Below, one piece after another: positions 2,894-44,100 of a stretch of DNA of 64,000 nt (positions within the stretch are counted from its first letter, which is position 1; every line of letters begins with the position of its first letter). The notes beneath the pieces are model-generated. The model did no database searches. It worked only from the letters and a program-made list of their open reading frames with translations, and was not told the DNA's origin. Position numbers and translations under genes: made by a program. Source of the stretch: Candidatus Omnitrophota bacterium. GTDB taxonomy: Bacteria > Omnitrophota > Gorgyraeia > Gygaellales > Profunditerraquicolaceae. The DNA lies in the NCBI GenBank assembly GCA_026387455.1, contig JAPLLR010000046.1:4921-68920 (forward strand), written 5' to 3'.

Positions 2894-2920
2894 ATGAGCC
2901 TTTAACGGACGCAATATCCG

Positions 2921-2929: not shown

Positions 2930-2993
2930 ATAAACAATGTGTAACGGCAGGCATAAAGCGAATAGAATTTAAGGGAGAAAGACGGCTAAGCTT

Positions 2994-4322: not shown

Positions 4323-4335
4323 GGACACTTCCTAC
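4320..4335. repeat. left terminal inverted repeat of the IS200-like element
   Basis: TAGGGACACTTCCTAC; overlaps the TAG stop (4320-4322) of the upstream ATPase gene. Confidence 0.75.
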
Positions 4336-4440
4336 CTTAGTAACATCATTTATATCAAGCACTTAGGATAATCAGGCTAAAATTCCACAAATTTTTCTGT
4401 TAGATTTTGCCACTTCCTTCGTCTATTATAGTGAGGAGGA

Positions 4441-5058: not shown

Positions 5059-5070
5059 GAAGTGTCCCTA
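5055..5070. repeat. right terminal inverted repeat of the IS200-like element
   Basis: GTAGGAAGTGTCCCTA; contains the transposase stop TAG (5056-5058) and, on the other strand, the TPR gene stop (CTA 5068-5070). Confidence 0.75.
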
Positions 5071-6132: not shown

Positions 6133-6216
6133 TCATTCCTCCGATTTAACAACTTTAAGATCTTAATTATATTATAGTCTATTTCTTTCGATTTTACAAA
6201 TACTTTTGTCTCAAGC

Positions 6217-6260
6217 AATGTCCAATCTGTAATAAACTAGGCAAGGAATGTCCATTATTA
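6217..6260. promoter_or_regulatory. two direct copies of an AATGTCCA(A/T)T-containing 14-mer upstream of the 6393 gene (candidate operator or short repeat)
   Basis: AATGTCCAATCTGT at 6217-6230 and AATGTCCATTATTA at 6247-6260; two more copies lie just downstream of the same gene (7647-7680). Confidence 0.35.
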
Positions 6261-6392
6261 CCCAGAGACGCTTTTAGCTTTGGCTTGAGGGGTGCTTTTG
6301 TTTCTAGGAGAGAAAACGCTATCAATTAGTTAGTTTTTAGCGTTGATAAAGTTGGTCTGCATGTTACACTTTACCTATACTGGAATAAAACT

Positions 6393-20100: not shown

Positions 20101-23100
20101 GGCTATTTTAGGAATTCGGTTTCAGACTCCTACTATCAGGGCTCTATCACTGGGGGATGGGAATCTTTATTAGGTGACGGATTCAGCAATTTTGTCAATC
20201 CTGAAAAGAGCAAAGACACCAATCCTATAACCAATCCCGAGCAGTATGCGGGATTGAGTTATTTCGCAACGCAGATGTGGTTATTGGGCGGTTACAAAGA
20301 AGGTGCAGGCCTAAAGAAAGGCGAAGCCAGAGGCACTCCGCTTTTAGATACATATCAAACCCTGACAGCCATAGAGCTTACACCAATGAATCTTATGCTT
20401 TTCCCCGGAAATGAGCTTGGTAGGCAGGTGGGCATGGTAAAAGAAGCGGCGACAGCAGGTAGAACTGAAGGCGATGCTTCTTCTTTCCGCGGCAGGTTAA
20501 ATCAGCTCGGAAACGCAAATGGCGGCCCCGGGCATCAGTTTGTGGAAAATCTTATTTCTGCAGCCCTACCTTTACGTTCTCCGCAAGCAACTCCTTCGAA
20601 TAAAAGTGAAGTTGCTCCTGTGCAATCTTCTACGGAAGCGGGAGGAACAGTAAGGTTAAATGAAAATGATGTAGTAGGCGATAGGGGCAGAAGAGCGGGG
20701 GGTAGCGATGTGAAGGCTCCTGCTTCTCAGCCTGAAATGTCACGTCCTAACTTCTTTCAGCGTTGGAGTCAGCGTAGTTATCTAAAGCAAGAAGGATACT
20801 CTTTTTCAGAAAGAAGAGCGATTGCAGATGGGCGTCTTGCGCCTACAGATAGAAGTGGAAATGTCAGGGCAGACGTAGTAAATCGTTTTAATGAGATTGG
20901 CGCTACTCCGACTTGGGTTGGAAGATCGCTTAATCGGGCAAGAGAAGCCACCACCACTTGGATTAAGAATCAGATAGACGCCAGCCCCACAGTGAACTGG
21001 TTTAAGAACGATGCCTTTGATATGTCTAAGTCTCCTGTGGTCGATGCCGGCAAAAAAGTAGCTGGCGCAGTAGCTGATGCAGGAAGGGCCACCGCAGACT
21101 GGGCTAAGAATGACGCACTGGATATGTCTAAGTCTCAGGTAGTCAACTGGGCCAAAGACACCAGCGTCGGCAAATGGCTGGCTAACGATGCCTTTGATAT
21201 GAATAAATCTCTTGTGGTCAACTGGGCAAAGAATGACGCCGCTCCTTGGGTCAAGAATCAGATAAATACTAGCCCCACAGTGAACTGGTTCAAGAATGAC
21301 GCCTTTGATATGTCTAAGTCTCGGGTTGTCAACTGGGCAAAGAACACTGCTCTTCCCAATATCGCTGCCTCTGCCAATCCTAAGAACTGGACCACCTATA
21401 ATTGGGCTAAGACAGCTGCTATCTGGGCAAGAGACACCGCCACCCCCTGGATTAAGAATCAGATAAATACCAGCCCCACAGTGAACTGGTTCAAGAATGT
21501 TTGGCAGCTTGCTACTTCCTCGCAGTATCGTTTCCTCAATAGACGCGGTATTAAAGATCCAACTACGAGAGCTGCAATCATCAGGGACGGATATTCAGCT
21601 CCGGAATCTCCCAATAAGACCTTATTTTATGAGATGCGCGCTGATCAATATTTAAAAGACAATGGTTTCTTCTTTAGAAGGCAAAGAACAGCGATTAGGC
21701 AAGGGCGTTTAAAATCTAATGATTTGAGTCTTAGCCGTGATTTTAGCGAAATTCGTAAGGGGCGCGTAGTTTATGATGAGGCGGCCCAAAATGATGTTTT
21801 ATCATCCGGCCGCAATGTACATCTGTCGATGGCTGGTGAATGGGCAGCGGATATAGGCGGAAGGAAGAAGGGTGATGGCGGAAGATCGTTAGAAGCCAAG
21901 ATTCTAAGAGTAGAAAAAGGCGAAGACGGCGCGACTCGCATTTGGTTGGATACAGAGGAGATCTTCGGTGGCCGCGGCGCTACCTCAAGGGACGGAAAGA
22001 CCATATACTTCAGCCGCAACGCGCACGATGGGACAGATGTGCATGAAAGCACAGAAGCAGCCTTGCTATCTAAAGGCATATCCCCGTCAGCGTCACATAA
22101 AATAGCGGCAGAGGCTGAGGTAAGGTATTTAGCGCGTACGCTCGGCTATGACTTAAATGATCCCAGCCAAAGAATGCTAGTAGAGGAAATGGCAAGGAGC
22201 CATTCTGATGCCACTAAGGTCGCTAATAAGGAAAGGGCTCCGCCAGCGCCAAAATCGCCTTCCCATGTAGTTGTTGCTCCCGCAGAAGGACCGGGTTTTA
22301 GAGCTGCTGTTGGAGAAGGCGAAAGTATCAGCGATGTTGCCATAAGAGCTGGCCGCAGGCCAGTAGCTATGCTTACCGAAGGCACACCCAGCGATGCCTC
22401 TCGTTCCAGAACCGCAGCCAATCCCGAATCCGAAACCGTATCTAAATCTCAAGAAGCAATTAAACAAGATAAGCTGACCAGAGAGGCCCGGATATCTGAA
22501 TTCAGGCGGCAGCAGGAAGAAAGACAGGAAATTGAAAGAGCCCAAAATATACTTGGGAGTAAGGATCTTAAGCCGCAATTTATCTTTGCCCCTGAGACTG
22601 GCAGGCGCGTATTCATCGCTACCGCTGATGGAAAGGTGGCATTAGTAAAACATGGAGAAGAGGCGCCGGATATATCCCGCAGACCCATTGCCCTTCTTCC
22701 TGCACCTAAACCTGCGATCGAAGTAAAATCTGAATCCAAATCTGCACCCGCGCAATCTAAAGAAGTTGCGGAATCCAAAGCCCAGCCTGATGATAGAGTG
22801 TCTGTGTCTAACGAAGCCAGGCTTAGGAATGAACAGGCCAATCAGGAAAAGAAGGCTGAGTTTAAAGCAAAACAGGAGAAACTTGAAAGAGTAGCAAAGA
22901 TTGTTTCTGAGACGCCTAATACCGATAAAGCCAAGCTAAGAGTGGCTAAGGAAGTAGTTAAAGATAGAAGCTTACCTAAGAGGGAGCGTTTAGCAGAGGC
23001 AGATAAACTTATAGAAGCAGCAAAGCCATATGCACCCAAGAAAGAAGCTGCTAAGCCAGAAGTCAAAGAGCCGGTTTCTCAGTTGGTTGAATTAGGCGAT

Positions 23101-26100
23101 GGTAAAGGCACGATCAAGGTAAAGGTAAATAATCCGGAAGCGCTCGCAGGAGACCAGAAGAAATTAGAGAGATTAAATCGCGCTGTCGCTAGGATAGAAA
23201 AACAGAATTCTCAAGCTCAGGATGAAGCGGTACAGGGCCAGATTCAGGAAGCTGGATTCTGGGCGAGATTAATCGGCAGAAAAGGCCGTTCAGCTTTTGA
23301 AGCCAGTCCTTCATCCAACCCTGCCGAAAGCCCCGCATTAAAAGAATTAAAAGCGCAACGCGATGCCTTAGCCGAGAAGATCACTAAGAATATGTCGCCT
23401 GTCCCTGAAGCTGATTTGGCCAGACAACATCTCCAGCAATTAAGGAAAGCCATAAATATTCTTAAGGAGACTACTGACTCTGACCGGGCTATGGATAGAG
23501 TGGTTAAGGAAGTAGTCAGCAAGGATAAAAAGCAAACCAACAAAGAGCGCCAAACAGAGGCGAAAAGGTTTATAGAAGAAGCCAGGCGCTATCTGCCTGA
23601 ATCGCAAGCCCCTAAGCCTGTTATACCAAAAGGTCCATCCGTCGTATATTTTGGCAACGAAAGCGGGCCAGTACAAAAAATCCATCTTAGCCCCAAAGAA
23701 ACAACGCAAGATGCAGCAGCGACAGCAGCGAAGGTTTTCCGCAAGCCTATTGCGCTTCTACCTGCTCATATATCTGCACCCAAGCCATTCTTTAGCAGAG
23801 TGATAGATGCCATAAAATCGAAGTTCTCTAGATCTGCTAAGTCTTCCGAGCCAGAGTTACTGCCTTCAGCTAGTCAGGAAGCAAAAGAGGCGATTAGAAA
23901 AGAAAGAGTAGCACAGAGAGATCAGCTTAAGAAAGTAGCGGCCATAGTAGCCGAAGCCGAGACTCCTGGTCAAGCTAAAGTAAAAGTAGCGCAGATGCTG
24001 CAGAGCGAGCCGGCTAAGAAAGACCTATCCAAAGAAGAGAGAAAGGTAGCTTTAAAGAGAGCAGAAGAGCTTATAGAAGAGGCAAAACCGTATGCACCTG
24101 AAGTCGAGCAAGGAAAAGAGCATGCCAGCAAGATCGAAAAAGTTACCAAGATCCTTCAGCAAACCACTGATTCTGATCAAGCCAGGGCAAAAGTCGTAAA
24201 AGAAGTAGTTTCAGACGGTAGAAAGCAGACTAAGAGAGAAAGAATTGTTGACCAGCGTAAGGCAGACCAGTTGATTGTAGAAGCCAGGCGCCAACTGTCT
24301 AAATCGCAAACTCCTAAGCCTGCTATGCCAAAGAGCCCATCCGTCATAAACTTTGGTAATGAAAGTGGGCCAGTAGTAAGAATCAACCTTGGCCCCGGAG
24401 AAACTGCGCAAGATGCAGCAGCGAAGGCTTTACGCAAACCTATTGCGTTTCTACCCGCACCTAAATCCCAAGCCAACAGGCAAGAAGTTGCTAAGCCTGC
24501 TCCATCCGAAGATGTTCGGCCGATGTCTGATGAAGCCATAGCTAAGAATCGGCTGGACAATAGGCAAAGGATAACTGAATGGAAAAACCTGAAGAGAATA
24601 GGACAGATACTTTTCGAAACAGCAGATATCCAGCAAGCCAAGGCAAGAGTAGCGCAAGAGGTGCTTGGGGTCGGTAAGGAAAGATCCCAGAGAGAGCAAA
24701 AAGCTGCGCTTAGGAAGGCAGAAGGGCTTATAGCAGAGGCAAGGCAACATGTGCCTAGCGCCACCACCACTACTGTTGCTCCCAAGTCCAAAATGACAGA
24801 GGTGGCTAGGATCGTGCGCGGTGAGAATGGCGAGCCTGCATTTGAGGCACATCCGACTATGAGTTCCTCCAGCGCGCAGTTGAAGGAGTATGTAGCTACA
24901 GAAGAAGCAGCCCATCTGACATTAGGTAACAGAGGCACAGCCGCGGAAGAAATCGCTGCTAATGTATTTACCCTTGAACGCTTAGGCATACGCGATGCTG
25001 AGAAAGTTACTGATCCGCATTTAAGAGCTTTAGCAGAGATATCATTGGACCATGGCGTAGAGAGCCCCATAGTAAGGACTGCCCGTTTTTATAGCGAGAT
25101 AGATGCGCAATTAAGAGACCAGCTTGTAGACAGCCATGGTAATTTGCGCCGGGACGTTTTGGATAACGCTACTAGACAGCTTGCGGGCCTTAGGAAAAGA
25201 AGCAGCGATGTAGAGGCTCGCAGAGACCATTTGAAAGATTTATTATCCTGGTCGCGCATAGCCGTCAGTAAGGAAGGCCAGCCTCAAGAAGTTTTGGCGC
25301 GTTCGCCGTTCAGGATGGCAGACGCTGGTAAAGAAAGCGCGCAGAAGACGCTAAGTGAATTAATTAGTCAAAGTAACTCCTTGTCTACAGAAGAGGCAAA
25401 AGCTCTTGGGGTTGCAATAAAGAATGCAATAAAATCAGGAACGCCAATTGATCAAATACAAGATCCTACCATTAGAAAGGCAGCTCAACTTTGGAAAAAA
25501 GCTTTTGAAAGTCCAGAGCTAAGAAAAGTGATGAGCTTAGAACTTAAGGAAGATCAGATAGCCCAGACTATATTAGAGGCTGTATCGAGGCCGATACTAG
25601 GTAGAGATTTGGGTGCTGGAAAGACAGCAGGTGATATCGCAGCCTTTGCAGTTCGTTTCCAGGTAGCTACGCAAGAAGGTAAAGAATTGAATGAAAGTTC
25701 TTGGAAAATAAAAGATTTCTTAATTGAGCAAGCAATTGATGGCTCTGACCCCATAGCAAGATTTTTTATGGAAGAAATCGCTAAATCCGCAAAGATATTG
25801 AGATGGGTTGTCGTGCCAGATGGAAAAGGCGGCACAGAGTTTAAAGAAGTGCCTATTGATGGTTTTGAAACCCCAGCGGACGCAAAGAGTAAATTTATTT
25901 TTGCTGATAGTGAAACTCTACTAGAAGTTTATCTAGGAGCAAAAGAGAAGAATGGCGAGAAAATGCGCGAAGCATTTAGGCAACTTACAGGAGCTAGCGC
26001 AGACGAAACACAGCTTTTCTTTGCCAATGCAACTTTGATTAAAGCAGAAATAGGGAAAATGTTTAGTCAGTTAAGTAGGGGAAATATTAAAAAAGCAGAG

Positions 26101-29100
26101 CTTATAGCTATTTTATATGAAAAATTAATGAAGTTAAAGGAAACCACGCCGGATTTAATAGATGGTCGATTAATCATAAAAGATGGATTAGGTAAGGAAG
26201 TAGAGGTTCATTCCTCAGCTTGTATAAAGGATGAATATCTACCGACGAAGTTACTTGATTTATATAGAAGCATGCGTAAAGCTAAAGAGTTACCCTTTTC
26301 AATGTCTTTCGAAGAATTTAAATCATATGCCCAGCATTGGGCTAGTTCTATGAATCAAAGAATTGACGCAAACGTCTATGTTGAGCTCGACCATTTCGTA
26401 ATGACGCCAGAAGAGAGGATTAAAGCTAACTCTCATCCTTATAGAGTAGCTCAAGAAGATGGGACGGGTCGTCCGAGTACTATTTTAGGAGATCCAATAG
26501 AGGCAGCTTTCTTAGTTGCTAGAATTACTGATGCTAAGCTGAAGTTAGTCTCCGAACCCTCTTTTGATAAGTATACCCAAGAGGAGCGAATAGCAGATAT
26601 AGCGAATGCTCGGCTTCAGGAGTCAAAGAAAAAAGCAGATTTTGCGGAGTTGATTAGCGGGGAATATGGCATAGGAGCAGATAAATTTACTGGCTTTACT
26701 GCAACCCCTGGTAGGGATATGTTACAGTATTATGGAGTAGGGAAGAAGCAACGCGATATACGCTTACTTGATCCGGAGAAATTAATTAAGGAAACGGATC
26801 GAGATTTTAGAGCGACACTTGACAAAGCTATTGAAGGTCAGATAGATACACATATTGGTAATATTAGAGATAATCCGCGCGCTTTACATTTAGGCATTGG
26901 TAGAGATGCAGCTATTGTAAGAAGAGCCTATGAAACAACAAAAAAAGCGGTAGAAGCTGGAGAATTAGTTAGTTCAGATGGTCGTCCTTACGAAGTTAAA
27001 TTTATTGAAGGGTTTGAACCAAAAACACAACAAGCATTGATGAAGGAGTATAGTAAAGGACGCCTTGAAAAACCGATGATTATATATGTTGTCGGTGATC
27101 CTTCAGGAGGTAATATAGCTGCTTTATCAAGAGGTGTAACATCAGCTGCTACACATCAGCTAACCATGGAAGGTATAACTAATATAACTCAGCATCTAGG
27201 TAGGGCAGGAACAGAAGGTAGGGCCGGAGGTTTACATCCAAAGGATCCAGTGAAATTTTTAACACTATCTTTAGAAGATCAGTGGATTACTCCTAAGCAA
27301 AAGAAAGAATTAGCCGGGTTAACTGGTAGAGACTTGACTAAGAAATTAATAGATATTGGGTATAATATTGATACAGTTATTGGAGAACAAGGTTTTCACC
27401 GTACATTAATTACTTCAGTTTCAAATATACAATATACACAAGCAGAGTTAGCTGCTTTAAAGGCAAATTTACAGGCAAGAAGAGATTCTCAGCGGACACA
27501 AAATAGAGATTTAGGCGTATCTTTGAATGGTACCTTAAATAATGTGCCCGAAGGCGCGCGTAAAGTTATAGAAGCAAAGTTTTCTAATGCTCAACGCGGT
27601 TGGACAATTCCCGCAAGCGATTCTAAAACAGCTCCGCTTAATTTAACTACTGCGGGCAGTCTCGTCTGGCAACAAACCCAGTCACTTATGCATGCTGCGC
27701 AAGACGACCGTAAGTCAATAGCTTCTCTTAATCTTGGTTTGTCTTCAACAACCCAGGCAGCGTTACAGGCAAGAGATTTAACCACGCAGGAAGCTTTTAC
27801 TGCTGTAACTGAGATGGTAGATAATGGCGTTCTGAATTTAGCCCATCCTGAAAGAGGAATTACCTCGTTAGCAGCTATCGGTGGAGCGGTGAGGGCGCTA
27901 AACAGCCAGAATTCGACTCAGCCGCTTAATATAGGTAAGGCTGAAATCGATGATATGTATAATCCTGTTTCCCGCGATTATAGCTTACTGCGTAGTGTGA
28001 CTACACAACTGCAGAATACTAATCCGCAATTAGCCAGAGAGCTGCAAAGTGTTTATAGTGGTACTTATACCACTTCGCAAAGACAAGAATCTATCCGCCA
28101 AGCTGAATTAAAACTTGAGGCTAGGCAGATTCGCTTAGTGAATAACCAAGAAGCAGGATGGGAAAAGACAAAGAGAGGAATTGGTTTTGTTGCTGGCGGC
28201 GCGGTGCTTGGTACGGTGGCCGGCGGTGTCTCCTGGTTCCAGAATAAACAGCGCCCGACAAAAGACGAGATGAAGGATATATACAGGAATACTAGTTTTA
28301 TCTTGTCGAACCTTCCTTTAATAATCAGGGCTAAACCCGAAGCAGGGGTTGCGGTGGCGAAATTATCATTCCTGGCACTGGGAATTGTGCTAGCTCTTAA
28401 ATTAGCGCCCCCAGCTATACCTTTATTAGCTAAATTAGCCGCAAGCACCAGCCTGGCTGGCTTTCTAGCTCCGATAGTGACTTCTTCAACAACTAATCTC
28501 GCGATATTAGCAGGGACAAGTGCTGCCATAGGATTGCCGGCAATGAAAGCTGTGGATGTTGCAGCCAGAAGGCAACAGGTCACAGTAGGCAAGATCACTC
28601 CTTTGGCCCAGGAATTAGGCGTATCCGAGGGGCAGTTAGCTCCATTATTCACTCCGCGCATCCAGCCGCGCGCGCCAAGTGAGATGATTGGCCGTACTTC
28701 TTTCCTGCAGCAGGCTAATCCTAGCAAAGCCGCGAAAATGGATGTTAATAAGTTGGTTCCCGGCCTTAATATGGATGAGGTAAAAGGGTTCGTTAGTATC
28801 TTTAACCGTCCATATCGTAATGCCGTAAATGCCACCACAAAGTTAATAGAAGCCAATTCCTATTTCAGCGCGGACAATCTGCAGGCGCAGGCTTTTAGAT
28901 CGATTAATCTTTCGGCCAAAGCCGAAGAGCAGAGCGAGCGGGAAGCAAACGCAAAGAGGCAGGAGCTAAAGGAGGAAGCAAGGAAGCTTAAGATCCTGAC
29001 TCAGGCTTTATTAGCGCTAGCGGGAAATGAAAGCCGGCCTAATTCTGGTAGAGTAAAATTAAGCCGGGTCAAAGAGAAATTAGAGCGCTCCGGAGAGGAT

Positions 29101-32100
29101 TTGTGGGAGGTAGCAGAGAAGTATCGTCTTATCCAACCGGAAAATGCGGTTACCTTTGATATGGCTGAGCCGGTGGTAGAGAGATTATCCCGCAAGGCAG
29201 GCATCTCTAGAGATGAGGCCAGAGAATTTGTTTATCCGTTGGTAACTCAGAGGACTAACCAGAATATCGCGCAAGACGTGCAGAATGCGCATAATGAGTT
29301 GATGGTAACCATGCCAGTAGCTGCCGATATGATACCTTTACCTACCATCGCCAGTGCGACTAGAGATGGCTCATGGCAGCGCTTTACGGACAGATTAAGA
29401 GAGCGCAATGACGCTGACCTTGCGGAAGCCAAACTTATTGCCGAGGCGGTTAACAATACTCAGGCAAAGGGTTGGAATATTGGCAGAGTTCTTACACATA
29501 TTAGCCCGGAGAATTTAGCAAAGACAAGGCAAGATATTGCTACCGGTAAAACAGATACTAATGTTCCGGAAATTGCCAAGCCTGCTGAGCCGAAAGCTCC
29601 TACTCAGGCAGAGATTCGCTCTAGCCTCGAAACTTTAAGCCAGAAGACAGAACGGGTCACTCTTGCCGGAGGACGCAAGGTAGAGGGAGTCAGGGTAGAG
29701 GCCGGCACAGCGGTTGAGATCAGCAATCACCGTCCGGATGGAAAATTTGTAGCTAAGGATCTAGCCAAGCCTAAGGATACGGCAAAGATTAGCGTAAATA
29801 AGGACGGCTCTGTCTTAATTACTAGCAGAAACGGTTTAGGCGATAAACTTGAGAAATTAATCAAGAAAGAAGTTCCGCAAGCGCCTTATGTAGACGCGGT
29901 AAAGCCGATCTCTAGTATTACGCAGACTGTCACTACGATTGCTGTGTGGGGTTTTAGTGTTGCGATTGTTTTAGCAGCAATGCATACCGGTTGGTTTGAC
30001 CCCGCAGCATTAGCGCATCTTGCCGGCTGGAAGGCGTTCTTAGCCAAGGGAATCATTAACGGATCGGTTATGTTGGCAGCTTTGACTTTGCATGAACTTG
30101 GTCATGCTGCTGTCGCTTTCTTTGCCGGAGACAAGAGCCAGAAGGTCAGGGACAGGTTGACGCTCAATCCGCTTAAGCATTTAAGCGTATGGTCTTTACC
30201 TATATTAGCAGGATTACCGGGCGCGGCAAAGCCGGTAGAAGTCAATTTTGGCAGATTAAATGACAATAAGGTGAGGGCAGTAGCTGCCGCAGGTCCGGCA
30301 GTTAACTTAGTTACTGCTGGCCTGGCGCTAGGAATATTCTTATTGACCGGTAATCCCACGGTTGCCTTGTTCGCAAAGCAGTTTGCAATTATCAGCGCTG
30401 TGCTAGGTACCGTTAACCTTATTCCATTTGCCCTTCCTCAATGGATAAGTAAGTTTATCAATAAAGGCAACAATAAGCCGGTATTATTTGACGGCGCGCG
30501 CGTGATCTTAGGCGCGAAAGAGAAAGTTTCGCCTAAGATGCAAATGGTAGGCGGTGTTGCCCTTATGCTTTATATGTTCGGGCTTGGGCCAATTCTGCAA
30601 GGACTTGGTTTTGGCGCTGGATTAGGCGCAGGCATGGGCGGCGGTGGAGCCGGTGTAGGAGTAGGCGGCGCAGCAGGCACCATCGGCAAAGGTAGTGGTT
30701 CTGGCGGTGGCGCTGGCAGAGGCACAGCTGAGGTTAAGAGAATTGAAGAAGATGCCAAAAAGGTCAAGCAGTGGTTTAATGATGATTTGAAGCAGATAAG
30801 AGAGGCAAGAGAGGCTCTAGACAGACGGCTGAGAGAGTTACGCAGTCTTATACCTAAACCTCCAATATTAAGCGAAGAGCAGAGAATATTTACTGAGAAT
30901 ATCTTCAGCCGCATCTATCCGCGTTTGATGACTGTCGGAACTCGTCTAGTGGATAATTACCAGAGACTAGCTGGTGAATATGGCTTAAAGCCGGGCAATA
31001 TACGTCTTTATGTGGTTGGAGGCACTGCCAAGAATAAACAGTTAATCGGCTTCAACAGTGATATTGATTTAACTTTTGTTGTAGAAAATTCCGCTGGTTC
31101 TTTAGAGGTCCTGCCTAATAGAGAAGAGTTAGTGCAGAGCCTCTTTGCGGACACGATAAGAGATGTCTTCGGCGATGCCACTGATCAGGAGAGGGCAGCC
31201 ATCCGCGGTAAACTAGATATGTTAAGGTTAGGAGGAGCGCTGAATGAGATTAATGGTCCAGCATTGCTCCTGGCTAGCAGCGAATCCAATAAAGCGCAAC
31301 AGTCTTCACCTAAGCCTACTCAGCCTACTGGACAAGGTCAAAATAGGCATCAGGAGACTCCGATTGCCCCGACACCATCCACGACTTTGCCAACTCAGGA
31401 GCAAACCGGAGAAAAATCGCCTCTCAGAGGAGCTGTGGTGGGCATGTTTGGCTCAAGCATTGGCGTAGGCAGCCATCCGATAGACATGCTCGCGCCTTTA
31501 GATACCTTAGGTAATACTGTCAATTCACTACAACATTTACTCAGTATAGGTGCTGCACAACGTGTGCTTAGCCCGGGTATTCCCGGGGCGACTGCGAATG
31601 CGCTTTCGCAGGTCGTCGGTACGACAAGTGCGCACAATATAGTTACAATAGTTGCAGTAGTAGGATTAGTTGTAGTAGTAGTCACAGTTGGCGCAATAGC
31701 TCTGGTTAATAGCTTCAGAGCAGATGCGAAAACTGCAGGTGCAGGAAGTGTAATCAGCGGAGACGCTGAAAAGACCAGTGGTTCCCAGTTTGCGCCCGGT
31801 AAAGATGCCGGAAACAAAGGTTCCAGAGGTGTAACCGAAGGAACTCGTAATGGCACGGGGTTGCCTGTAGGAAACAATACAGGTAATACCGGAAATACTG
31901 GTAATGCAGCTACTGGATCCAATGGAAATAATGCAGGTTCTGGCAAGAGAACCGGTGGTTGGGCGAGTGCGGTCGAATTAGTAAGAAAACTGTCTTCATT
32001 TGTACGTATCAAAGGTCCCGCAAATAGCCTCACTCCCGCGCAAGTTGTGTCGGAAACCTATGGCGCTCGTGGTCCGCCCGCAGCACTAACAATCATTATA

Positions 32101-35100
32101 GCTACTTTCGCCGCTACGGTAATGCTGGGCAACATCTATGCCGCATCAGCGGTAACGGTTGCCGGTTTACTCGGCGGATTAGCCATAACAGCCCTCTCGG
32201 TAATTGCCTCCTTTAGCATTAATCATATATACTCCTCAAGACTTTATCCGCAAGACGGCCAGGCCAGCATTATAACCACAGGCGTCTACCGTTATTCTCG
32301 GCACCCGCAGCATCTTTGTCTGCAGTTATCCATGCTTGGTTTCTTGGCGATGTTCCCCACAGTTTATACCGCCATTACCGTCATCGCCGTTGTTTCATTA
32401 TTCCATCTTGAATCCAGAAAAGAGGAAGCGAAGTTATTAAATGACTCAAAGCTGGGAGCAGATTATGCCGAGTATCTCAAGAATTCCGGCTTGAAGATGC
32501 TCCCCAGAGATATTGCTAAAAAGATTAGGCCGTATACTTCTTCCGTGGCAGGAGTGGTGACGGCTATTGTTGTAATCGGAGGCTTATTAGCGGCCCCCCT
32601 CCAGGGATCGACCCCCGCTAAAGCCTCCGATACAACGTATACTACAACCAATCCAATCAATAATATAAATTTAACCAAGTATGGCGAGCCTTCCGTGGCA
32701 GGAGTTCGTCGTACAAATGTTGTATCAGAGGGCTCCACAGAAGGCCGTCCCTCCAGGACATTGACCCCTTTTGCCGGAGCCCTCTTTACAACTCAAGGAG
32801 GTGTACTATGTGCCCTATTAATATTAACACTATTAGCATTGACCACATCGTTGATTTTGGCAAGGACCGCACCACTTTCGCAGCAGCCCGTGAACCTGAT
32901 ACGCACCACCTTAGGATCTTCCTTATTTATCAGGATACTGGCAACGTCTACACTCGTAACGGCCGGGCTGATAGCTGGGAGGAGCTTATTGGCGGCAGGC
33001 GTGATACCATACTTGAGCGCGTTCTTGATGCTCGTAGGAACGGTGTTCCTACTTATCGACTTAACGGTTCGCACGAATAAAATAGGATTAACGGTTCGCA
33101 CGAATAACAATAACATAGGAGGTGTAAAATGTGCACAGATTATAACGAATTACAATTCAACCACTTCGTCGTTACAGCCGACGGCACAATCTTTGGAAGT
33201 GCTAGACACGAAGGTCACACCTACAACTTTATTCTCCACGGCAACTATGTCCAGGCCCAACACGGTGAACAATGGATCGATCTGGACACGCCTATCGCAG
33301 AAGTTGTCAGGAGAAGGGCTCAATCAGCCTACGCTATCGCTCCCCGGTACAAGGCCAGCAGGTTCATCTTCGATTAGAACTGCCGGAGCAGTGGTAGCTT
33401 TGGTGTTGGGTGTGATTCTTATTGCCGGCGCGCTGGCAGGCATTCCTCATGGAGTGGCCCCTGTCAGCGCCGCCGTTGCATTGGGGATGTGCAGCCAGGA
33501 AGGAGTTGCTACCGAGGAAGATAGCTTTAGGAATTTAAGGTTAACCCCTGATTACATCCGAAGCGTCCGCTTCGATGAGGAAGAAATAAGAGGGGCGGAT
33601 GAAACTGAACGCCGCATCAATCTTCTTATAAAAGGTATGGGGGACTCTAATTCTCCTTCCGAAATTGGAATAGTAAAGATCCCGGGAAGCCTGAAACGGG
33701 ATAGCTGCCGGGTGTTCAGGTTCAGTAATATAGAAATGACATTTTTTGAGGTCACCAGCCGCTTTGATTCGCAGGAAGGAAGATTCTCTTTGCCGGCGTT
33801 GCCTCAACAGCATGCTTTCCTGATTTCATCAAAATCAAATGATGTCATAGGGCACGGAATCATTAATCGGCCTGTCGGTATTAACGATGAAGTATGGTTC
33901 AGGTATGCTATCCACGGCGGACCTCACAGCAAAATTGGAGCTGATTTCCGGAAAAAAGATTATTATGGGACCAAGGCTTTGGTTTTGATTATGGCGATAT
34001 GTGTAAGCAGCGGTATTTTCAAGGGCCCTGTGAATGCGATTACAACATATTTTGAGAGAGATGAACAGCGCGCTGATCCGGAAGCAGTTCCCGCGGGTAA
34101 GAAATTTATATATGCCAGAGGATGTACTCCTGTTAAGGATAATGATTATTCTCTCTGGCAGTTTAGAATGGATGGTAAAGCCATACCTACCGTAGATGTA
34201 GATGAAAAAGAGCTTGCTAAGCTTGATGGTCGGTCAGCGCAGGAAGACGACTTTGTGGAAGTCAAACTCGGTGACCTGGTGTTTGAGAACGGTCAGCTTT
34301 TCTACCGCCCGAAGGCAAAACCTGAGGATTCAAAGGGCTTGTCCGGTTTTGCGCTTAACTTGAGCCTCTGGCAGTCAGGTTTGATTGTCACTGCAGTTAT
34401 CGTTTTAGTCGCAGCTATAGCCGTAGCCGTAATGGCTAATAGCGTCAGGGGAGATATTTCTTACTTGGATAAGGCTAGAGTTATTCTAGCCAGCCGCTAT
34501 CTGGAAGATTATCAGCGCAGGCAGTTGTTTACGAGAATGGCTAAGGGAGAAATCAGGTTTACCCAGGACACTAGGTTCAGCGACGAAGCGGTGTCCATAT
34601 CAGGAAAGTCATTAAAAGATATTGCCCAGGAAGTATTAAAAGTTATTAATTACTATGAAAATTCGACGCCCTCAGTCAAGGCCAAGGGCACCAATATTCT
34701 GGCCAGACTGTTTTCTTCCCTTGGTTTTATAGTGTTTGTTATTGTGGGTATATATGAATTTGTCTATGCCATGTCTGATTATAACGATGGCAGGGGCAAA
34801 AATTACGCTGCTATGAATAATGTGGATGAACTTAGCTATTCCGTTAGAGATCGTATTTGGGCTTCTCAGGAAGAGTTCATCAGATTATTAGGCGAGGATC
34901 CCAGTAAGGCTGTAAAAGCCGACAAAAAAGAGAAAATCGGCAAGGTAGCTCAGATGTTGGATTTCATGAATGTCCATCGCCAGGCCATCCAGAAATATGC
35001 CGATCAGTATGGAATCGATCCGGAGCTACTTGCCGCGATCCTCTTGACTGAAAGACTGGATATGTTTGAAGGAGATTTCCCGTGGGAGGTTAATACTGAC

Positions 35101-38100
35101 AGATGGAGCGTATTAATCGGCCGCGATGCCTCCGTGGGTATCGGTCAGGTGCGCATGAGCACTGCCCGTTCACTCTTAAAGGCTGCCAAGTATCCTGAGT
35201 TTAAAGGCAGGAAAACCAATGTCTCCAACTGGAATCTTTATAAGATGCTCACTAATGAAGATCCGGAGTTTAATATTATGATAGCGGCTATGGCCTTAGC
35301 AGATGTAAGGGACGGTATTGCCAGGGATATTAAGAGCAGCAGGTTGCCGCAGCTTAATGCCGAGCACTTAAGACTGGAAATGGCTTATCGTTACACTTCT
35401 TCCTTGAAAGGCCCGGTGGGTGCGCCGGTAAGCTTCGCAGAGTATAATAAACAGATAGAGAATAAAGATAAGAAGGCGTACAACAGGTCACAGGCAAATG
35501 AGTATGCTTATTGGGTAAGAGCGAATAGGGATTTAATCCGCGGTTTATCCATCTTTACAAATGCTCCCATAGCCAGAAGCTCGCTGCCGGCATTCAGCAT
35601 CTCAGGGGGATTGGATCTGATAGTGGCATTAGTTCTGGCGGTAGTAATTATCGATGCTATCTCGGCGACTTGGAGATATGTTGATCATAAGTTAGGCGAC
35701 CGCCGCGCAAATGAGAGAAAAGACGGATTGTACGCATCTGATAAATATAGAGAGTTTAAGAATAAGGATAGGCAAGAGAAGTTGAACGAGATCAAGGGGC
35801 AGTTTAGGCGCGTAAGAGAAGTAGCGGTATTATGGATAGGGTTGGCAGTCGTGGTGGCTGGGCTGAAGTGGGGCCTGAATAATTGCCGCAAAGACAATGC
35901 TCCGAGCCTGCGTGAAATTGCAGCTGAAGTTTGCGCTGATGCCCAGACCATTAAGGATGAAGGTAATAAATTTATCCAGTGGGGTAAGGAAAGATTCAAT
36001 GATCCGCGCTCTTTCGGGCAGCAGGCTAATTATGCTGCCAGAGAGTTTGGCCGGGATCTTGGCAGTGGTTTGAAACAGAATGAATTGCTTATGCAGGGCG
36101 TAAGCGGAAAAATGGACGGCGAGTTTGCCCTGAAGAAGATAGAGGAAATCAGGGAGGAAAACAGAAAGCAAACCACCAACTCCCTGCCGGCAATCAGCAT
36201 CATCGCGCCAGCAGCGATAATTTCCCTGGTTGCCTTAGCAGTGCTGGTTTATGCGATCTATAGGATTTGCCTGGTTAATAGATATTCCCGCGATAGAGTT
36301 ATAGATATGGTTGCTACAAAGCTGGAAGATAAAATAATTGTTGATACCGAGGAATTAGCCGAGACCAGGATCAGTGGATTAAATGACGCAGAAGAGCGCT
36401 TTGTCCGTGCGATAGTATTGGCAGAAGAGGCGCTTAAGGTCAGGGACCATGAGTTAATGGCTGAGGCAGTAGCTGGACTTTTCGTGGAAACAGAAACCGG
36501 CATAGATATTAAGCTGTTGAAGGATTACTTGGGATTAAGAGAAAAATATGAGAATCCGAAGATGTCTCGTGAAGAAAAAAGAAAGACCCAGCTATCTATA
36601 GCCAGGCATGAGGTGAAGCACGTTATTTCCGGCGTTATGGAAACTCCTAGAAATTCACAGCAGAAGCTGCCTTACTTCGCATATTTTTCTCCCTCCAGCT
36701 TTGGCGGCAGCGTCCAGGTTTCTGTTACTTGCGAGAATACCCGGAAAGCGATCCGTAGGCTCCAAGATATAGAAGCAATCGCCGGCCGAGTCTCAAATCG
36801 TCTCAATAAAGAGGGAGTTATAGATTACCAGGGCCTGGATGCTGAGGCTAATTTTGGCCTGAAGGCAAAAGAGGTGCGTTTTGTCATGGCGATAGTTCAG
36901 GCAGAAAGGGCCATGCGTAAGGCCAAGTCTGATTTAATGGCAGATGCCATCGTAACGCTTTTCACCGCTAAGGAAGTTTCCGCGGATGTATACTTCCTTG
37001 AGAGATACCTGTCCTTAAGAAAAGATTACGAACGCAGAAGGCAGGCTGATGAAGAGGAAGGGCGAGGCAAGGCGCATCATGAAGCCAGGCTGCATATTGT
37101 CAGGTCCGAGCTAAAAGATGTCCTTTCTGCCGTAATCAATATTCGCAAAGAGCAAGGTATTCAGCTGCCCGGATTTGCATACTTCTCACCGGCAGCCTTT
37201 GGCGGCGGAGTTGCAGTTTCCGTCAGCAGCGCAAAAGTAGAACCCATTATCCGTAGAGAGGTTGGCAGCAGGTTTAAAATCGGTGGTACTGAATATAATG
37301 AGGCGGATTCCAGTCGCGGGCATCGCATCGCCGGAGGAAAGGCTTGGAATATTCTGGCGGATTGGGATGTAAACACTGAAGGCGTTTATTTCGAAATGTT
37401 GAAAAGGTTAAGCAGCAAGGGTGTTGATTTAGCGTCCGTCTCAGCTGATGGCCGGGCTGATGTCTTAAGGGAAGTCTTTGATACTATCTTGAATCTTGTC
37501 CCCTTCAATGCAAATTTTGAAGGCCTCAGCAAAATCGGTAAAGTATTCGAGCAAGGCGGAGTCTGCAAGCATCATGGCGTATTAATTGCCATGTTTGTGG
37601 AGCGCATACTTAACAATTATAGCTCTAAATGGAAAGGCGCAATTTACTTTGTTTACGGCCCCAGCCATAATCCCACCCATGCCTGGGCCCTTTATGTGAC
37701 CAGGGCTGGAGATTATTGCGTTTTTGACGTAACACAGAGAAAGATCGTTGGTCTGGATGGGCAATTTAGTTGTAACGATCAAGGCACAAAGGTTCCTTAT
37801 TCTGATGGTGTAGGTATGAATGATATCATCGCACGCACCAACGCAAGATTACGGGAGAGCAAAGAAGAATCAGATAACTATAGCGTTACCGGCTTGCCTA
37901 CATTTGGAGAAGCGATTCGCAGGGATCCCCAGAATCGCAGACCGCCCTCTACTGATGATAGAGAGTTGCCGGCACTTGTCTTCGTAGATACGCAGACATT
38001 AGTTGTAGTAGCTGCGGTGGCGGCAGTGATTATCGGCGCAGCTTACCTTGTTTACCGGGTCTATAACGGTTATATGAATCACAAAGTAGCAGTGGCAAGC

Positions 38101-41100
38101 ATAAATGAGATGGCCAGGCAAGCTAGCCGCGCGCCGAATAATATGTTTAACCGCGCCAATATTGTACGCATATCCGTATTACTTGCCGCAGTTATTCTGT
38201 TAATCTCCGTAGGATTATTCCATTTCGTAATTCTGGCAGCAACCACAGTAGAAGCAGATATCGAAGAAACAAAGTCTAGGATCAAGGCTGAAATATTAAG
38301 GCTTAGCGGTTCTGTATATGACAATGAGAGGTCTAAAGTAATAGCCGAATTCTTTAAAGGTTTGCCGGAGCAAGACCTTGCTCTGGCAGTGGATGTACTT
38401 TTGGAATTATCCGATGATCCTAGTATTGGACAATGCTGCATAAATCACTCTATGACCCTTTCTCTTGCAGAGAGCTGCCGCGTCAGGCCGGAGCTTATGG
38501 AGATAGTGGCTTCGAGAATTGCGAATTTAATAAGTCAGGGCATAGGCAGGAAGGCTATGCTGGTAGAGATCATCAATTTATTTAGTCTGGTATCTTATGA
38601 GAACCGCGTCTTAGGAAAATCAGATTTCTCAGCGATGCTCTTGTGGAAGATGCAGGAATTAGGCATACCTATGCCGAGAATTATGGAATTGTTGGGTGGG
38701 TGTTTCAAGACCTGGCGTGAAGATTTGGAATATGATTATACATGGCCTGAACAATCTCTCGGAGAGAGCATTGGTTTAAATTGCAATGGCGGAGCGGTAA
38801 TATTGAAGTCCATTGATAAGAGCTGGTATTATATTTTTAACACAGACAATGTTTGTATAGGCAGCGCGCTGATTAGCTGCGCTATGCAAAGGAATGCAGC
38901 TTACCTTTATATTAATATATGGACTGGAGCAGGCAAGGGCATAGGGACTGAGATTATGCGCTTTGTCGCCGAAAAGATAAGCAGAGTTGATGGGCCCAGC
39001 GTTATAGGGGTATTTGTCCCGGCGGACAAGGATTATGTAAGATTCTTGCTGCGCTGCGCAAAGCTGGGAGTTATCAATAGAGTTGAGCTTAAAGTCGAAG
39101 ATAGCGCTAAGTATATCAATAGCGTAGGCATGGGCAATTGGAATATGCCGGAACAGTCTTCGGGTTGGCAGGTAATTACGAATGAAGCAGAGATGGATAA
39201 TTTTGGCAAAGGCAGAATATTTGCCAGATGCATTGTAGATGCAAACCAGCCGCAGACTCCTTCCGTGGCAGGAAAGAATGCGGCTACTGACAATAAGGGC
39301 ACGGAGGAACAGAGAAAGGTAAGCTCTTCCGTAGCCCTTGTTACAGACAAGCTTGGGGTGCTGGTAGCGATAGTTGGAGCATCAATTCTATTAGCGTTGT
39401 CAGCGAAATTCTTAGGGCTGGCTTTATTAATCGGCGTTGCAGCGGTAAACAATGATGATGCGAAATACGTGTTGAATATCGAACTCCTCAAGGCAGAGCT
39501 TGTCAATAAGGGGATTCTTCGCGATAAAGATCAACCGCTTAATATTAATCCTGCAGTATTAATTGCTGTTAGCGATTTCTGCTATACCGATGGAGAGTAT
39601 TTGGTAGGAAGAGAATTCCGTAGGCTTGCCAAGGCATTAGGGCTTGTGATGAGGGAGCTGGAGAGAAGAACCGGTAAACCGGCTGCAGAGATCAGTCTTA
39701 GCCAGAGCAGCCTTACCAAAGAAGAAATCGCAAACATCTTAAATGCGGCTAAGGAAGAAGATTATGCGCAAAGAGAGGTAAGCGCGTTCTCCAGAAAGAT
39801 AGAGCTTGGCCAGAGGTTGCTTAAGGGCGGCACTTCTGCCGAGACCATCCTGCAATTCTTAACTGGTAGATTCTTTGGGGCAACCTCAGGGTCCACTAGG
39901 TCTATCAGCGCTACTGAACATAAAGTGAAAGATTTACTCTTTGATATAGATCATACCCAGGAAGGCAAGTCTTTGCGTAAGAAAGAAGAGACAGCCAGAT
40001 TACTGAAAGAGCTTCTCGGCCAGGTGGTGATCGACAATGTCAATATTCCCAAGTTTTTCGCCTTTGATATCGATGACACCTTAACCAAAGCAGACATTAA
40101 ATCCTTTAACGCTATGGTTGAAGTCTTAAAAGAAGACCCATCTGCATTTGTAGGAATAATTACCGGAACAGGCGCTTTTGACCTGAATTATGATTCAGAA
40201 GAAGAGCGCATTGCTGAGAAAGACGCAATATATGACACCAAGATTAAGCCGGCTCTGGTTAAACTTGGCCTGAACCCGGATCGCCTAGATTTTGTTATCT
40301 CTGTTGTTTCTACTCCAAAGCCGAGAAAGCAATGGACTGAGTCGCCTATGGTTAATCCTTGGGTTAGCATTAATGCATACTGGTGTGTAAAGATTAATGA
40401 CGGAAACGGTGGTTTTATCAAACAGTATCCGACAGAAAGCAACTTTAGAGGTATAAATAAGCTCACCGGAGCCAGCAAATTATTCGAATATTTTGCCCAT
40501 AAATTCTCTAACAACGCAACAGTTTCTTGGGAAAGGGCAGCTCAGTTGGCTACTCAGTTCCTGCATAGGTCAGTATTGGTTATGGCGGATGATGATCTTG
40601 AGCATGCGCGTATTCCTGTGATTTGCAAGCCTACCAATAGCAAGGAAAAAGGTATGTTGCAGCAGCTTGGCGCTCATTCGCGCGAAAACGAGATACAGGA
40701 GCCTTTCGGAGTAGGCAGGATTTATATTAATACTAACGTTATCAAGTGCCCCTGGTTAACCATCGAAAAAGCTCCTGAAGAGTTTGTTTTTGATTTTGAA
40801 ATTGATGTCATCCTGGGTCTGACTACATTGCTTGAGCATATGAATGACCCTAAGCGTAACGCGCGTATCTTTAACGTGGAAATCGAAGCCCATCGCGTTA
40901 AACCGGTTAACGGTACTGCTAACGGTAATTCCACAGATCCTCAGGTCGCGACTTACCGCGCTCCCGGCTCAAGGGATAGGGGCGCGCGCAAGGGCTTGCC
41001 CAAGGAGATCAGAAACGCCGAAGAAAAAGATTCCGCGAACATCAGGCAATACTTGCTTGACGATGACGGCGAGGTAGCTAAGCTCATCGCAGGGCGCAAT

Positions 41101-44100
41101 AGCAGCGAATTAACATATTACGGATTCTATAAGAAGCTGGCAGAAGAGATCCTGCCTCAGGGCAAGGTTATCTTTAAGGTTATACCTTCCCAGAATATGG
41201 GCTTCAGGAGAGACGACGGCGATAAGACCTATATCTATGCCGTCGGCACAAAAGGCGATATTACCTATATCTATGTCACTTCTGCTTTATATGAAAAGAT
41301 CAGGGCAAGCACATATTTCAAAGCTGCCCTTTGCGTCCATGAGGTAGGCGAGACTAGAGACGTGTTCAATCACCTGACTGCCATGAAAGAAGAGATCCGC
41401 TTTTCCAGCGATCCGAAAAGCAACTTAAGCGACATGCAGCGTCTTGTATTTGATTCCGAGAATGATAAAGGAAACATGGCTTACCTATTAAGCATTATCC
41501 CGGATCGCCTTGTCCAGAAGGCATATTCTGATATCACCAGCGAGATGATCAGCTATGTAAGCCTGCTTATCGCCAAGCAGGTGCACGAAAGGCCGGTAGA
41601 CGCAGCTGTCATAGAGGAGGATGCTAATATCGCTGATTCTTTGCGTCATAGGCTATTCGATTCCATAAATAAGGCTACCCAGAATATTAGCATCCTTGGG
41701 CAGGGAGGCATATTATCAGAAGAGGTAAGGGGCGCCCTGAAAACTACCGAAGAATCAATCAACATCATTCTTACTTCCATAGAGGATGGAAAATTGAACC
41801 CCATAGCCAAAGACGCAGCGATCAAATTGCTTAAGAAACAGGCCAGGATCCTTAGGGAATTAACAGAAAATATGGCTTATTTGGAAAGATTCGAATCTTT
41901 TAATTCTCTTAAGAAGGATATCGATGAGTTCTACAAGAGGGTAGTTGAGGGGACACCTACGGTGGTAAAGGACCAGGAGCTGATTGACCTGGCTGATTTT
42001 ATGCAAGCCATCCACACTGAGCATTATGGGTATGGCTTTAGGCCGGTTGTTTCTGACCCTGGAATGCCTTTACCTATATTAATTAATGCGCATGACCTGA
42101 TGAGGATCTTTGAAGATCTATTACAGGCAATAGCTAGGAGAGCACATAAATCTAACACGGCAGTAGTATTTGTCACTGAACCCGGATTAATTAAAGTGAT
42201 TTTTAAGAACACCGATGCAGACGTAGTTGCTGTTCAGGCACTGCTGGAGAAGTGGCATGGCAGGGCATATCGTACACAGATAATCGGCACTTTAGGTGAT
42301 ATCGTCTTAGAGTTCCCTAAGGCTTTCAAGCTCTATCAGACTATTTCAAATGAAGTATTGGCTCAACTTGCAAATACAGATTGGGTTGTTTCTGTCTGTC
42401 AGCATAAAGAAAACCATGAGAATTTTATTGTTGATGAAAAGGTAAGTAGGATGACCGTTTACGGCCAGTATCTTTCACATGGCATGTGTCCGCAGTGCGA
42501 AAAGAAGAATCGTCCTGTTGAGTCAGAAGCTCAGGCAGCCGCAGCGAAGGTTCCGTCTGCGCCAACCAAGATCAGAGTTTTGTTTGTGGATGACGAAAAA
42601 GCAATTAGGGATATGATGGCGGGAAGAAATAATATGCCAGGATACCTGGCGATGATAGCTAAAGATAAGACAGTGAATCTTTCTTTTGAAGTGGTGATCG
42701 CGGAAAACGCCCAGAAGGCGCTTAACGCGTTTGTAGATGCCCAAAAGAAAGGACAACCTTTTGACTTAGTGGTCACCGATATGTCCATGCCGAAAAATCC
42801 TGATGAAGAGATCGAAGGCGGACGTGAATTAGCCCAGGCGATTAAGAAGATTGCACCCCAGACTTATATTATTATGGTCAGCGGTCATCACAGCCAGATG
42901 ACAGAGGTGGCCCAAGCTATCAAGGAAAATGTAATCAATAGTTTCTACACCAAGCCATTTATCGGAGAGGCAGTTAAGGAAGCGCTGCTAGGGTTTAAGA
43001 CCGCGCCCAACCTACAGGAAAAAGCACCTGTTAAGCAGGATGTTAGTATACTTGGTTCTGCGGCTGCCAGTGCCACAGCAGCGGCTACAGCAGCGCTGGC
43101 TTTCTACGCAGCAAAGGCAGTGATTATTTCCAGCTTTCATCCTTTCGCCATAGCGTTATTCGGAGTTTTAGCAGCAGTGTGTTTTGTCTCTGCGGCATGG
43201 GCTTATCTTTTTGGTTCGCAGGCTATCAGGCTATGGTTAACCAGGGCCAAGCCTGTACGCGCGCCTCCTGAGGCAAGAGCCAGGTTAGAAGCACAGCTGC
43301 AGGATTTCTTCGGGCCTGATGTCAAGGTGGTTCTGGAATCCGACTGTAAGACTATTGCCTCAAGCGATAAAGATAATAAGACAGTATTTGTTGATATCGA
43401 TTGGCTTTATAGGGTAGCTCCCCGCGCAACTGAACTTACCTCGTTCCAGAAATCTCTCCTCACCCATGAAAAAGCCCACTTAAACGGTGCCACAGAATCA
43501 GAAGCTTATATTGCCCAGGTTCTCGCTTCCCTTGTCCAGGATATTAATAATGCTAAGGGCGTTAAATTATGGGCGCTGTTCCTGGGTGTAGTTACATTAT
43601 GCCTAAGTTATAATAAACTTATTGCCGCATTTCCGATTTTAGCCACAGGCTGGATCGGAGTCCTTCTTATTGGCACAGCACTGGTGTTGTTGGGTGTTAA
43701 CTTTGTGCTTGCAAAATTCACCAAGAGAGGGGCTTCAGCTTTCTTTACCACAGTTGCATTGACTTTCTTCTTTGTCGGTCTTCTATTGGCGGTGGATGTG
43801 TTTAACCCGCTTTACGGAAATATCCTGAAGAGCTGGTTTCCGCAGACATGGTTGGCTTACATTGCTGACATGCGCGGAGCGGCAATAGCGATAGTAGCTT
43901 TTATTTCTCTGATCGTTCTGCCGGCTTTGATCAGGGAATATCAGGATAAGTTGGCCAAAGAGGATATCTATAAATACGATATCAAGGCTTTAAAAGATAA
44001 TCTTCTCAGGTTTATTAACGACGACATCAAGGATGAAAAGGTCAGGCAAAACTATATTGATCAGGTGGAAAGAATTGCTGTAAATAATTCTCGGGCAAAT

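Follow-up and report, generated by a model that had tools for sequence, protein, structure and literature searches.

We describe a probable expression module that lies inside a giant gene of a Candidatus Omnitrophota bacterium (assembly GCA_026387455.1). The stretch of DNA analysed (the window; 64,000 nt, positions 4,921 to 68,920 of the forward strand of contig JAPLLR010000046.1) carries two small open reading frames (ORFs) nested out of frame within one giant ORF of the same strand, with two tandem copies of a structured RNA motif directly ahead of them. Comparison of related loci makes it probable, at about 80%, that these elements form an old, conserved expression module embedded in Omnitrophota giant genes. 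The module would consist, in this order, of at least one copy of a two-hairpin RNA, an A-rich linker, a near-perfect Shine–Dalgarno (SD) site and a gene of ~90 codons in the −1 frame; next would come a diverged tandem paralog in the window and a GC-rich hairpin at most other loci. A preliminary description of the window, made from the sequence alone, had pointed out the two ORFs but had missed the conserved structured RNA.

Nested genes and selection on the two frames

Nested ORF1 (32808..33080, + strand) encodes 90 aa and belongs to a conserved family of ~90-aa proteins; nested ORF2 (33129..33377, + strand) encodes 82 aa and is a divergent paralog of ORF1. Both are read in the −1 (= +2) frame of the giant host ORF (8140..64000, + strand), which runs without a stop codon for 55,861 nt (>18,620 codons) to the end of the window and continues beyond it. 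The SD sites, AGGAGGTG at 32796..32803 (+) for ORF1 and AGGAGGTG at 33117..33124 (+) for ORF2, each place GGAGG 6 nt before the ATG; in the host frame the ORF1 site is read as Gly-Gly-Val. All the positional claims of the preliminary description were reproduced here: coordinates, −1 frame, SD-equipped ATGTGC starts and the open host frame. Within the 64 kb, AGGAGGTG occurs only at 32796 and 33117, both times followed by ATGTGC, and it is part of an 18-mer repeat whose two copies are spaced 321 nt apart. Two copies are not unusual by count (shuffle mean 1.8); it is their placement that is notable. Over positions 32800-33300, a codon-usage score with the remainder of the giant gene as its training set goes down for the host frame and up for the small frame.

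Counting ATG ORFs of at least 60 aa in alternative frames on the + strand inside the giant gene gave 11 (60-97 aa). An SD-like site precedes three of them, namely ORF1, ORF2 and a 74-aa ORF at 31244-31468 (+), whose upstream SD-like sequence is AGGAGGAG and which does not match the hidden Markov models (HMMs) of the family. The 3′ end of ORF1 carries a tandem duplication with a 27-nt period (33061..33107, + strand; TTAACGGTTCGCACGAATAA at 33061 and 33088). The giant frame stays open across this duplication because the period is a multiple of three; a close relative, locus L043, does not have the duplication. Promoter and terminator scans of 31.8-34.2 kb gave background-level signals only.

The tandem paralogy first suggested for the two ORFs holds at the profile level only. 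BLASTP produced no alignment of ORF1 with ORF2, whereas hhalign matched the two families with a probability of 97% (E 2.9e-11, 73 columns), and the ORF2 HMM matches ORF1-type sequences in nearly all loci. Judged by these profiles, ORF2 is a divergent paralog recoverable at no closer level. Its position relative to ORF1, before or after, depends on lineage, and most loci have no ORF2. In the window ORF2 has an SD site and no RNA motif copy of its own; ORF2-type genes located upstream of ORF1 in other lineages carry their own copy.

In a collection of 5.8 billion proteins we found 89 homologs of ORF1 (85-100 aa, 49-93% identity), and the few named ones stem from Candidatus Omnitrophota metagenome-assembled genomes (MAGs). 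A HMMER profile search among 1.84 billion representatives extended the family to 178 clusters at 50% identity, nearly all of 80-110 aa. In the family alignment 14 columns are invariant, and the core, GNVYTRNGRADSWEEL, is nearly so. AlphaFold (AF2) models ORF1 confidently (predicted local distance difference score 87.5, predicted template-modelling score 0.78), with a helix between five strands and one last strand. For ORF2, four close homologs were found, with lengths of 82-85 aa. The 400 aa of the giant protein directly downstream of the module, used as a query, detected zero homologs; set against the 89 homologs of ORF1, this indicates that the nested gene is conserved far better than its host. 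Two predicted proteins (P0149 and P0174) switch from the giant frame to the small frame; frameshifts introduced by assembly inside the module probably explain both, and alignments of the family could be misled by them.

To compare the nesting across genomes we fetched 70 loci with ORF1 relatives (two exact look-ups, 35 GTDB species-representative genomes, which are mostly Omnitrophota MAGs, and 28 metagenome contigs). At practically every locus a long open frame encloses the small ORF, and the offset between the two frames is the same; about 60 loci, mostly from Omnitrophota MAGs, show this arrangement, with ORF1 identity among them reaching down to 42-50%. The host frame is usually open to both ends of the locus, 10 kb per side, where the contig permits. 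Over 57 non-redundant nested ORFs the host frame contains 0 stop codons, the third frame 563. Synonymous codon resampling, with each small protein held fixed, gives an expectation of 318 host-frame stops under host codon usage or 59 under the nested ORFs' own, already biased usage; the chance of a stop-free host frame per ORF is 0.002 or 0.33, respectively. The ORF2-type paralogs (n = 7) likewise show 0 stops in the host frame versus 39 in the third frame. Third codon positions of the small frame are near saturation (1.4 bits), therefore the stop-free state must be actively maintained. The preliminary suggestion of an insertion tolerated by the giant gene, if taken as a recent event, is not supported: the frame relation recurs in distant loci and the host frame is actively kept open. 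The nested overlapping-gene system with internal SD sites that was also proposed is supported (0 stops versus 59-318 expected).

A codon alignment of 56 sequences gave nucleotide entropies of 0.82, 0.63 and 1.41 bits at small-frame positions 1, 2 and 3. Conservation confined to the host frame would have spoken for the giant ORF as the only coding frame here; the opposite was found, with variability peaking at the third position of the small frame. At the amino acid level, sequences share on average 58% pairwise identity when translated in the small frame, compared with 34% for the host frame and 32% for the untranslated third frame. The host-frame product had been likened to an off-frame read, and it looks like one: across the overlap it is rich in Leu, Ser, Thr and Ala (L 18%, S 16%, T 12%) and mildly hydrophobic, with a grand average of hydropathy of +0.37 versus −0.20 elsewhere in the giant frame. 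GGAGG is located 5-9 nt upstream of the ATG in 56/56 ORFs, at exactly 6 nt in 51 of them, and the Met start is nearly invariant across the family. By these alignments the small frame is shown to be under purifying selection at the amino acid level, and the host frame across the module to be selected only for the absence of stop codons. The small ORFs are thus fully enclosed on the same strand, under purifying selection in their own frame, with a host frame kept beyond expectation, as is characteristic of genes nested out of frame.

At the N-terminal end of the giant product are a hydrophobic segment and a Peptidase_C39 domain (nt 8683-8922, + strand; aa 182-261); ICMT-like, receiver and other domains are scattered farther along. 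C39 domains near the N-terminus were reported as the rule in giant Omnitrophota genes (10.1101/2023.11.21.568195), and the giant gene in the window matches the published descriptions. It starts behind an AT-rich leader with no recognisable SD. Six normal-sized genes occupy positions 300-7637 on its 5′ side. Antisense ORFs of 154-297 aa are present within the giant gene (24177-25070, 28065-28856, 31395-32033 and others, all on the − strand); chance antisense ORFs are frequent opposite long ORFs of biased composition.

The two-hairpin RNA and the flanks of the module

Every nested ORF is preceded by 150 nt whose DNA sequence is conserved. This segment holds an RNA motif of ~120 nt with two hairpins, and sequences from 14 diverse loci fold alike (single-sequence folds, −50 to −67 kcal/mol). 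Hairpin A is a long stem with the cap UCC-GUGGCA-GGA; hairpin B is a long stem with an inner hairpin (CCUCC loop) and an internal loop AUUGACC. On the 3′ side of hairpin B come the A-rich linker and then the SD.

A covariance model (R1) was built from a seed alignment of 13 sequences with the structure set manually. It superseded an RNAalifold run on a gappy MAFFT alignment of 37 leaders, which had yielded only 8 pairs. R1 matched 77 copies in the window and 63 loci. All 77 are on the giant-gene strand, almost all in one codon phase, and the motif was seen in giant ORFs only. In the alignment made with R1, 91.7% of paired cells can pair, versus 66.7% after shuffling and 46-54% with slid partners. 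Compensatory double changes were found in 39/39 pairs, many of which show four to six pair types. A MAFFT alignment blind to structure gave the same signal, with 17 covarying pairs versus 9.5 after shuffling and 1-7 for slid partners. The excess of G-U cells (230) over A-C cells (58) indicates that the sense RNA is the folding strand. Covariation, strand specificity and stability beyond shuffles are all present, as in structured RNAs generally; on these alignments an RNA structure under base-pairing selection on the sense strand is shown. Rfam 15 gave chance-level matches only for the region (E 3.9-7.5, far under the gathering scores), and in a negative control, 725 kb of viral DNA picked for containing the loop 14-mer, there was no full-length R1 match.

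Three copies of the motif are located in the window. Copy 1 (32524..32644, + strand; R1 score 76 bits, E 1e-15; −52.5 kcal/mol, z −4.15) has the hairpin A apical loop GUGGCA at 32545-32550 and the hairpin B loop CCUCC at 32598-32602, in phase 0 of the giant frame. Copy 2 (32674..32797, + strand; 75 bits, E 1.9e-15; −56.7 kcal/mol, z −7.28; with covariation) follows in tandem and abuts the SD of ORF1; its hairpin A spans about 32679-32714 (loop GUGGCA, 32695-32700) and its hairpin B about 32719-32792 (inner loop CCUCC, 32750-32754). Copy 3 (39244..39355, + strand; 48 bits, E 7.5e-9; z −4.88) is an orphan with neither a subsequent SD nor a nested ORF; it has no CCUCC loop, and a hydrophobic transmembrane-like stretch comes next in the giant frame.

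Copy number varies among loci: three tandem copies precede a single nested ORF in L023 (2237-2672), and three copies are also present in L068, L038 and L066. In L022 (5040-5157) hairpin A is kept with loss of the near-invariant GUGGCA loop, which the related L025 still has. A number of contigs break inside the motif, at their 5′ ends (L043, L032, L047, L049, L065) or at their 3′ ends (L061, L067); being a repeat, the motif may often be what interrupts the assembly of giant genes.

On the 3′ side of the nested ORF most loci have a perfect GC-rich hairpin with no U-tract, which is absent from the window. The whole module, RNA structures included, contains no stop codon in the host frame. Within 60 residues after the nested ORF, the giant frame carries an SSP tripeptide, typically as (A/V)SSSP(V/I), in 20 of 55 loci (examples are L010, L016 and L052), an enrichment of ~6-fold over the expectation of 0.059 per 60 residues. 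Its serines are encoded by both TCN and AGY codons, which points to selection on the peptide. Indirectly, this conservation speaks for translation of the giant frame just after the module, and the peptide could be a cleavage or modification site.

Export-like signals are found directly after the module in several loci. Tat-like RRxFLK sequences occur in L052, L057, L049, L069 and L047 (e.g. the giant-frame Tat motifs DRRGFLKLAG in L052, SRRKFIKF in L057 and TRRNFLEL in L069), lipoboxes in L001 (LVALATGC) and L031, and transmembrane anchors elsewhere; L037 has an N_methyl prepilin motif in the giant frame at about 12015-12090. Such signals deep within giant ORFs would fit giant proteins built from, or cut into, ordinary secreted proteins. 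In several related loci a receiver domain is located downstream of the module.

GC-rich palindromic elements (GGGACA(G/C)TCCC..., CTGCCAATCGGCAG) recur across species, e.g. in L001 (1020-1098), L021 (about 896-970) and L027 (about 9905-9985), and lie directly past the nested ORF stop in L011, L028, L045 and L054. They are placed before the SD in some species and after the nested ORF in others, and never break the giant frame; they look like a separate small repeat tolerated in frame.

Proposed function and alternative explanations

In the mechanism we propose, 30S subunits would bind the internal SD and begin independent synthesis of the small protein there, and ribosomes translating the giant frame would read straight through the module, adding a disposable filler rich in Leu, Ser, Thr and Ala. 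The perfect SD at fixed spacing and the SSP peptide after the module lend indirect support to the production of both proteins. The giant frame would have to stay open because its downstream part would have no start of its own: across the loci no conserved start codon or SD for that part is visible. Were the giant mRNA to be cut, the leader hairpins together with the 3′ hairpin would also yield a sub-transcript that is stable.

What the small protein does can be framed only tentatively. Some copies of the RNA motif in these giant mRNAs are not accompanied by the ORF, which was itself found only in long open frames of this kind; for this reason our best guess, though at well below even odds, is a partnership of the protein with the RNA that targets the giant transcript or the giant protein. 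Candidate roles are RNA binding, processing, protection or stabilisation, antitermination in a transcription unit of 50-250 kb, and marking of segment boundaries in a polyprotein. More specifically, and with still greater reserve, the two-hairpin RNA may be the binding or cleavage site of the nested protein, the two together segmenting, stabilising or antiterminating the 50-250-kb transcript and marking cuts in the polyprotein. The Gly-Gly encoded by the SD precedes the filler, SSSP follows it, and a C39 peptidase, of the double-glycine type, is located at the N-terminus of the same protein. Polyprotein cleavage at the module with removal of the filler would suit the Gly-Gly and the export-like signals, a suggestive but unproven reading; the host-frame Gly-Gly could equally well be a by-product of the SD.

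Several observations weigh against the conserved embedded module. Neither sequence nor fold searches recognised a relative of the small protein, and its role is a guess. Joint probabilities of the stop-free state overstate independence since the loci share descent. The CCUCC loop is conserved equally in copies with or without a following SD. The signal-peptide-like sequences (Tat, lipobox) directly after the module suit separately started proteins better. In L014, L060, L023, L029, L036, L044 and L062 the open frame switches near the module. At the handover the two long open frames overlap briefly, and N runs adjoin in two cases; these switches look like assembly indels or scaffold gaps but could be real gene boundaries. 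Finally, a distant subfamily (MVTINT...IPCY), also nested in an open +1 frame (L072, L073-75, L078), has no R1 motif and its leader hairpins differ, and one distant member, at L076 579-926 and L077 526-873, has no overlapping open frame and stands free behind a terminator-like hairpin and an SD.

The free-standing member is possibly an ancestor or an escapee. The family may be older than its capture in giant ORFs; otherwise, read-through of a small intergenic gene may have been a way for giant ORFs to lengthen. Two narrower proposals were also considered. The CCUCC loop as an anti-SD sequestering the adjacent SD was weakened by the equal retention of the loop where no SD is nearby. The module as the true start of the giant gene (L023, L029, L036, L044 and L062) was rejected, as the upstream long frame overlaps the new one and N runs are found twice.

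The alternative that survives best, unlikely as we consider it, is a selfish or mobile cassette of RNA hairpins and a small ORF, persisting in giant genes only where the host frame stays open. It would be similar to the palindromic elements of Rickettsia and corresponds to the tolerated insertion of the preliminary description. In its favour, the RNA motif is multi-copy, at times tandem or orphan, and many contigs break at it; the ORF2-type paralog changes sides of ORF1 with lineage; flanking domains vary between loci; and the palindromes GGGACA..TGTCCC sit in frame at varied positions of the module. Against it, there is typically one ORF1 per 20-kb locus, always within a giant ORF and nowhere else in the fetched DNA, and both the protein and the motif are absent from IMG/VR viral contigs, where only chance matches were found. 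Purifying selection is strong phylum-wide, no similarity to a transposase or recombinase was detected, neither terminal inverted repeats nor target duplications were seen, and the receiver domain downstream in several related loci suggests vertical inheritance at a fixed place.

The giant gene might instead be two or more separately translated genes, with the module an ordinary small gene, leader and 3′ hairpin included, at their boundary; the frame open across it would then have a purpose other than the production of a fused protein. We judge this improbable. The signals after the module are of the N-terminal type (Tat, lipobox, transmembrane anchors), gene callers put a start there, and the distant family member stands free between genes. 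However, the downstream part shows neither a conserved start codon nor a conserved SD, the SSP motif that follows right after the module in the giant frame shows conservation of the peptide itself, and zero stops over about 500-700 nt in about 60 loci need a selection that is sensible only with read-through.

Since the small ORFs are in frame −1 relative to the host and SD-like sequences stimulate frameshifting, as in dnaX, the internal SD might serve a programmed −1 frameshift that yields a truncated giant protein ending in the 90-aa domain. We regard this as very improbable and rejected it: there is no conserved slippery heptamer between the SD and the ORF, a small-frame stop occurs 15-150 nt upstream of the ATG in most loci, and a near-invariant Met at a fixed 6 nt from GGAGG is the signature of initiation.

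Equally remote is a toxin–antitoxin or immunity pair embedded in the giant gene, an idea raised at the outset that found no support. It has in its favour two small adjacent ORFs with strong SDs and weak structural matches, including an anti-CRISPR protein and a CdiI immunity protein, far below significance. The database search proposed with it, of both small proteins against Pfam and toxin–antitoxin collections, returned zero matches; with PADLOC, NCBIfam, PDB sequence and fold searches included, nothing significant was found. Furthermore, ORF1 and ORF2 are paralogs, not different partners, and at most loci ORF1 stands alone. Open frames that arose by chance or through faulty assembly, for which the commonness of alternative-frame ORFs of 60-97 aa in the giant gene (11 on the + strand) might be cited, are refuted by the conservation of length, start, SD and sequence over about 60 independent assemblies.

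Significance and comparison with known systems

Few bacterial examples of long genes nested out of frame on the same strand are firmly backed by comparative data, and the majority of those reported are contested. About 60 loci, the third frame as an internal control and the split of constraints between frames make the present case one of textbook quality for dual coding. The RNA motif and the protein family appear to be undescribed, with no Rfam, Pfam or NCBIfam entry, and neither the nested ORFs nor the motif are mentioned in the papers on giant Omnitrophota genes that were searched or in a wider text search. The host genes are the largest known bacterial genes, and the module may bear on their expression. 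Whether the transcript or protein of a giant gene is processed into pieces was left open, with no cleavage points known (10.1101/2023.11.21.568195). The structured RNA, the internal start and the flanking peptide motifs are specific, testable positions for such processing. If the module is indeed a processing node, it would be the first concrete handle on whether giant Omnitrophota genes make one product or many.

Among known systems, the nearest is comS of Bacillus subtilis, which lies within the surfactin synthetase gene srfAB in another reading frame. There too a small same-strand ORF with its own ribosome-binding site lies wholly inside a very large multi-module gene, and its expression is tied to the host. 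However, comS encodes 46 aa and is confined to a narrow Bacillus group, whereas the genes described here encode ~90 aa and are found phylum-wide; unlike comS, they belong to a module that has a structured RNA leader and can duplicate in tandem. The host peptide over the overlap is part of a working enzyme domain in srfAB and an unconstrained filler here.

Another same-strand small ORF is gndA, nested in gnd of Escherichia coli (PMC11230408). In this gene pair, as in viral overprinted genes, two frames of one stretch are open and the nested product has an internal start. Those nested ORFs are short or young and weakly conserved, and the host carries the main constraint; here, in contrast, all detectable amino acid constraint is in the nested frame, the host frame being merely open.

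For the RNA motif, the Rickettsia palindromic elements offer a parallel: hairpin-forming repeats inserted in frame in protein-coding genes. Both are structured repeats inside ORFs, in one orientation and phase, translated as an extra peptide. The Rickettsia elements are dispersed over many unrelated genes and encode no protein, whereas our motif was seen in giant ORFs only, covaries in the manner of an RNA, has an excess of G-U cells and comes together with a conserved protein gene.

Cis-acting RNA elements for processive antitermination are known from phage lambda (nutL-N), HK022 (put) and eps operons (the EAR element). The lambda nutL-N arrangement resembles the module in having hairpins in a very long transcription unit, in more than one copy, and a small protein gene right after the RNA site that its product binds. 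Lambda N is an arginine-rich disordered peptide, unlike the folded beta-rich domain predicted here, and there is no sequence or Rfam match; the likeness is an analogy only. As a kind of feature, the same-strand nested gene is known; new are the breadth over which this one is conserved, the reversal of constraint between host and nested frame, the structured RNA dedicated to it and the setting in a giant gene.

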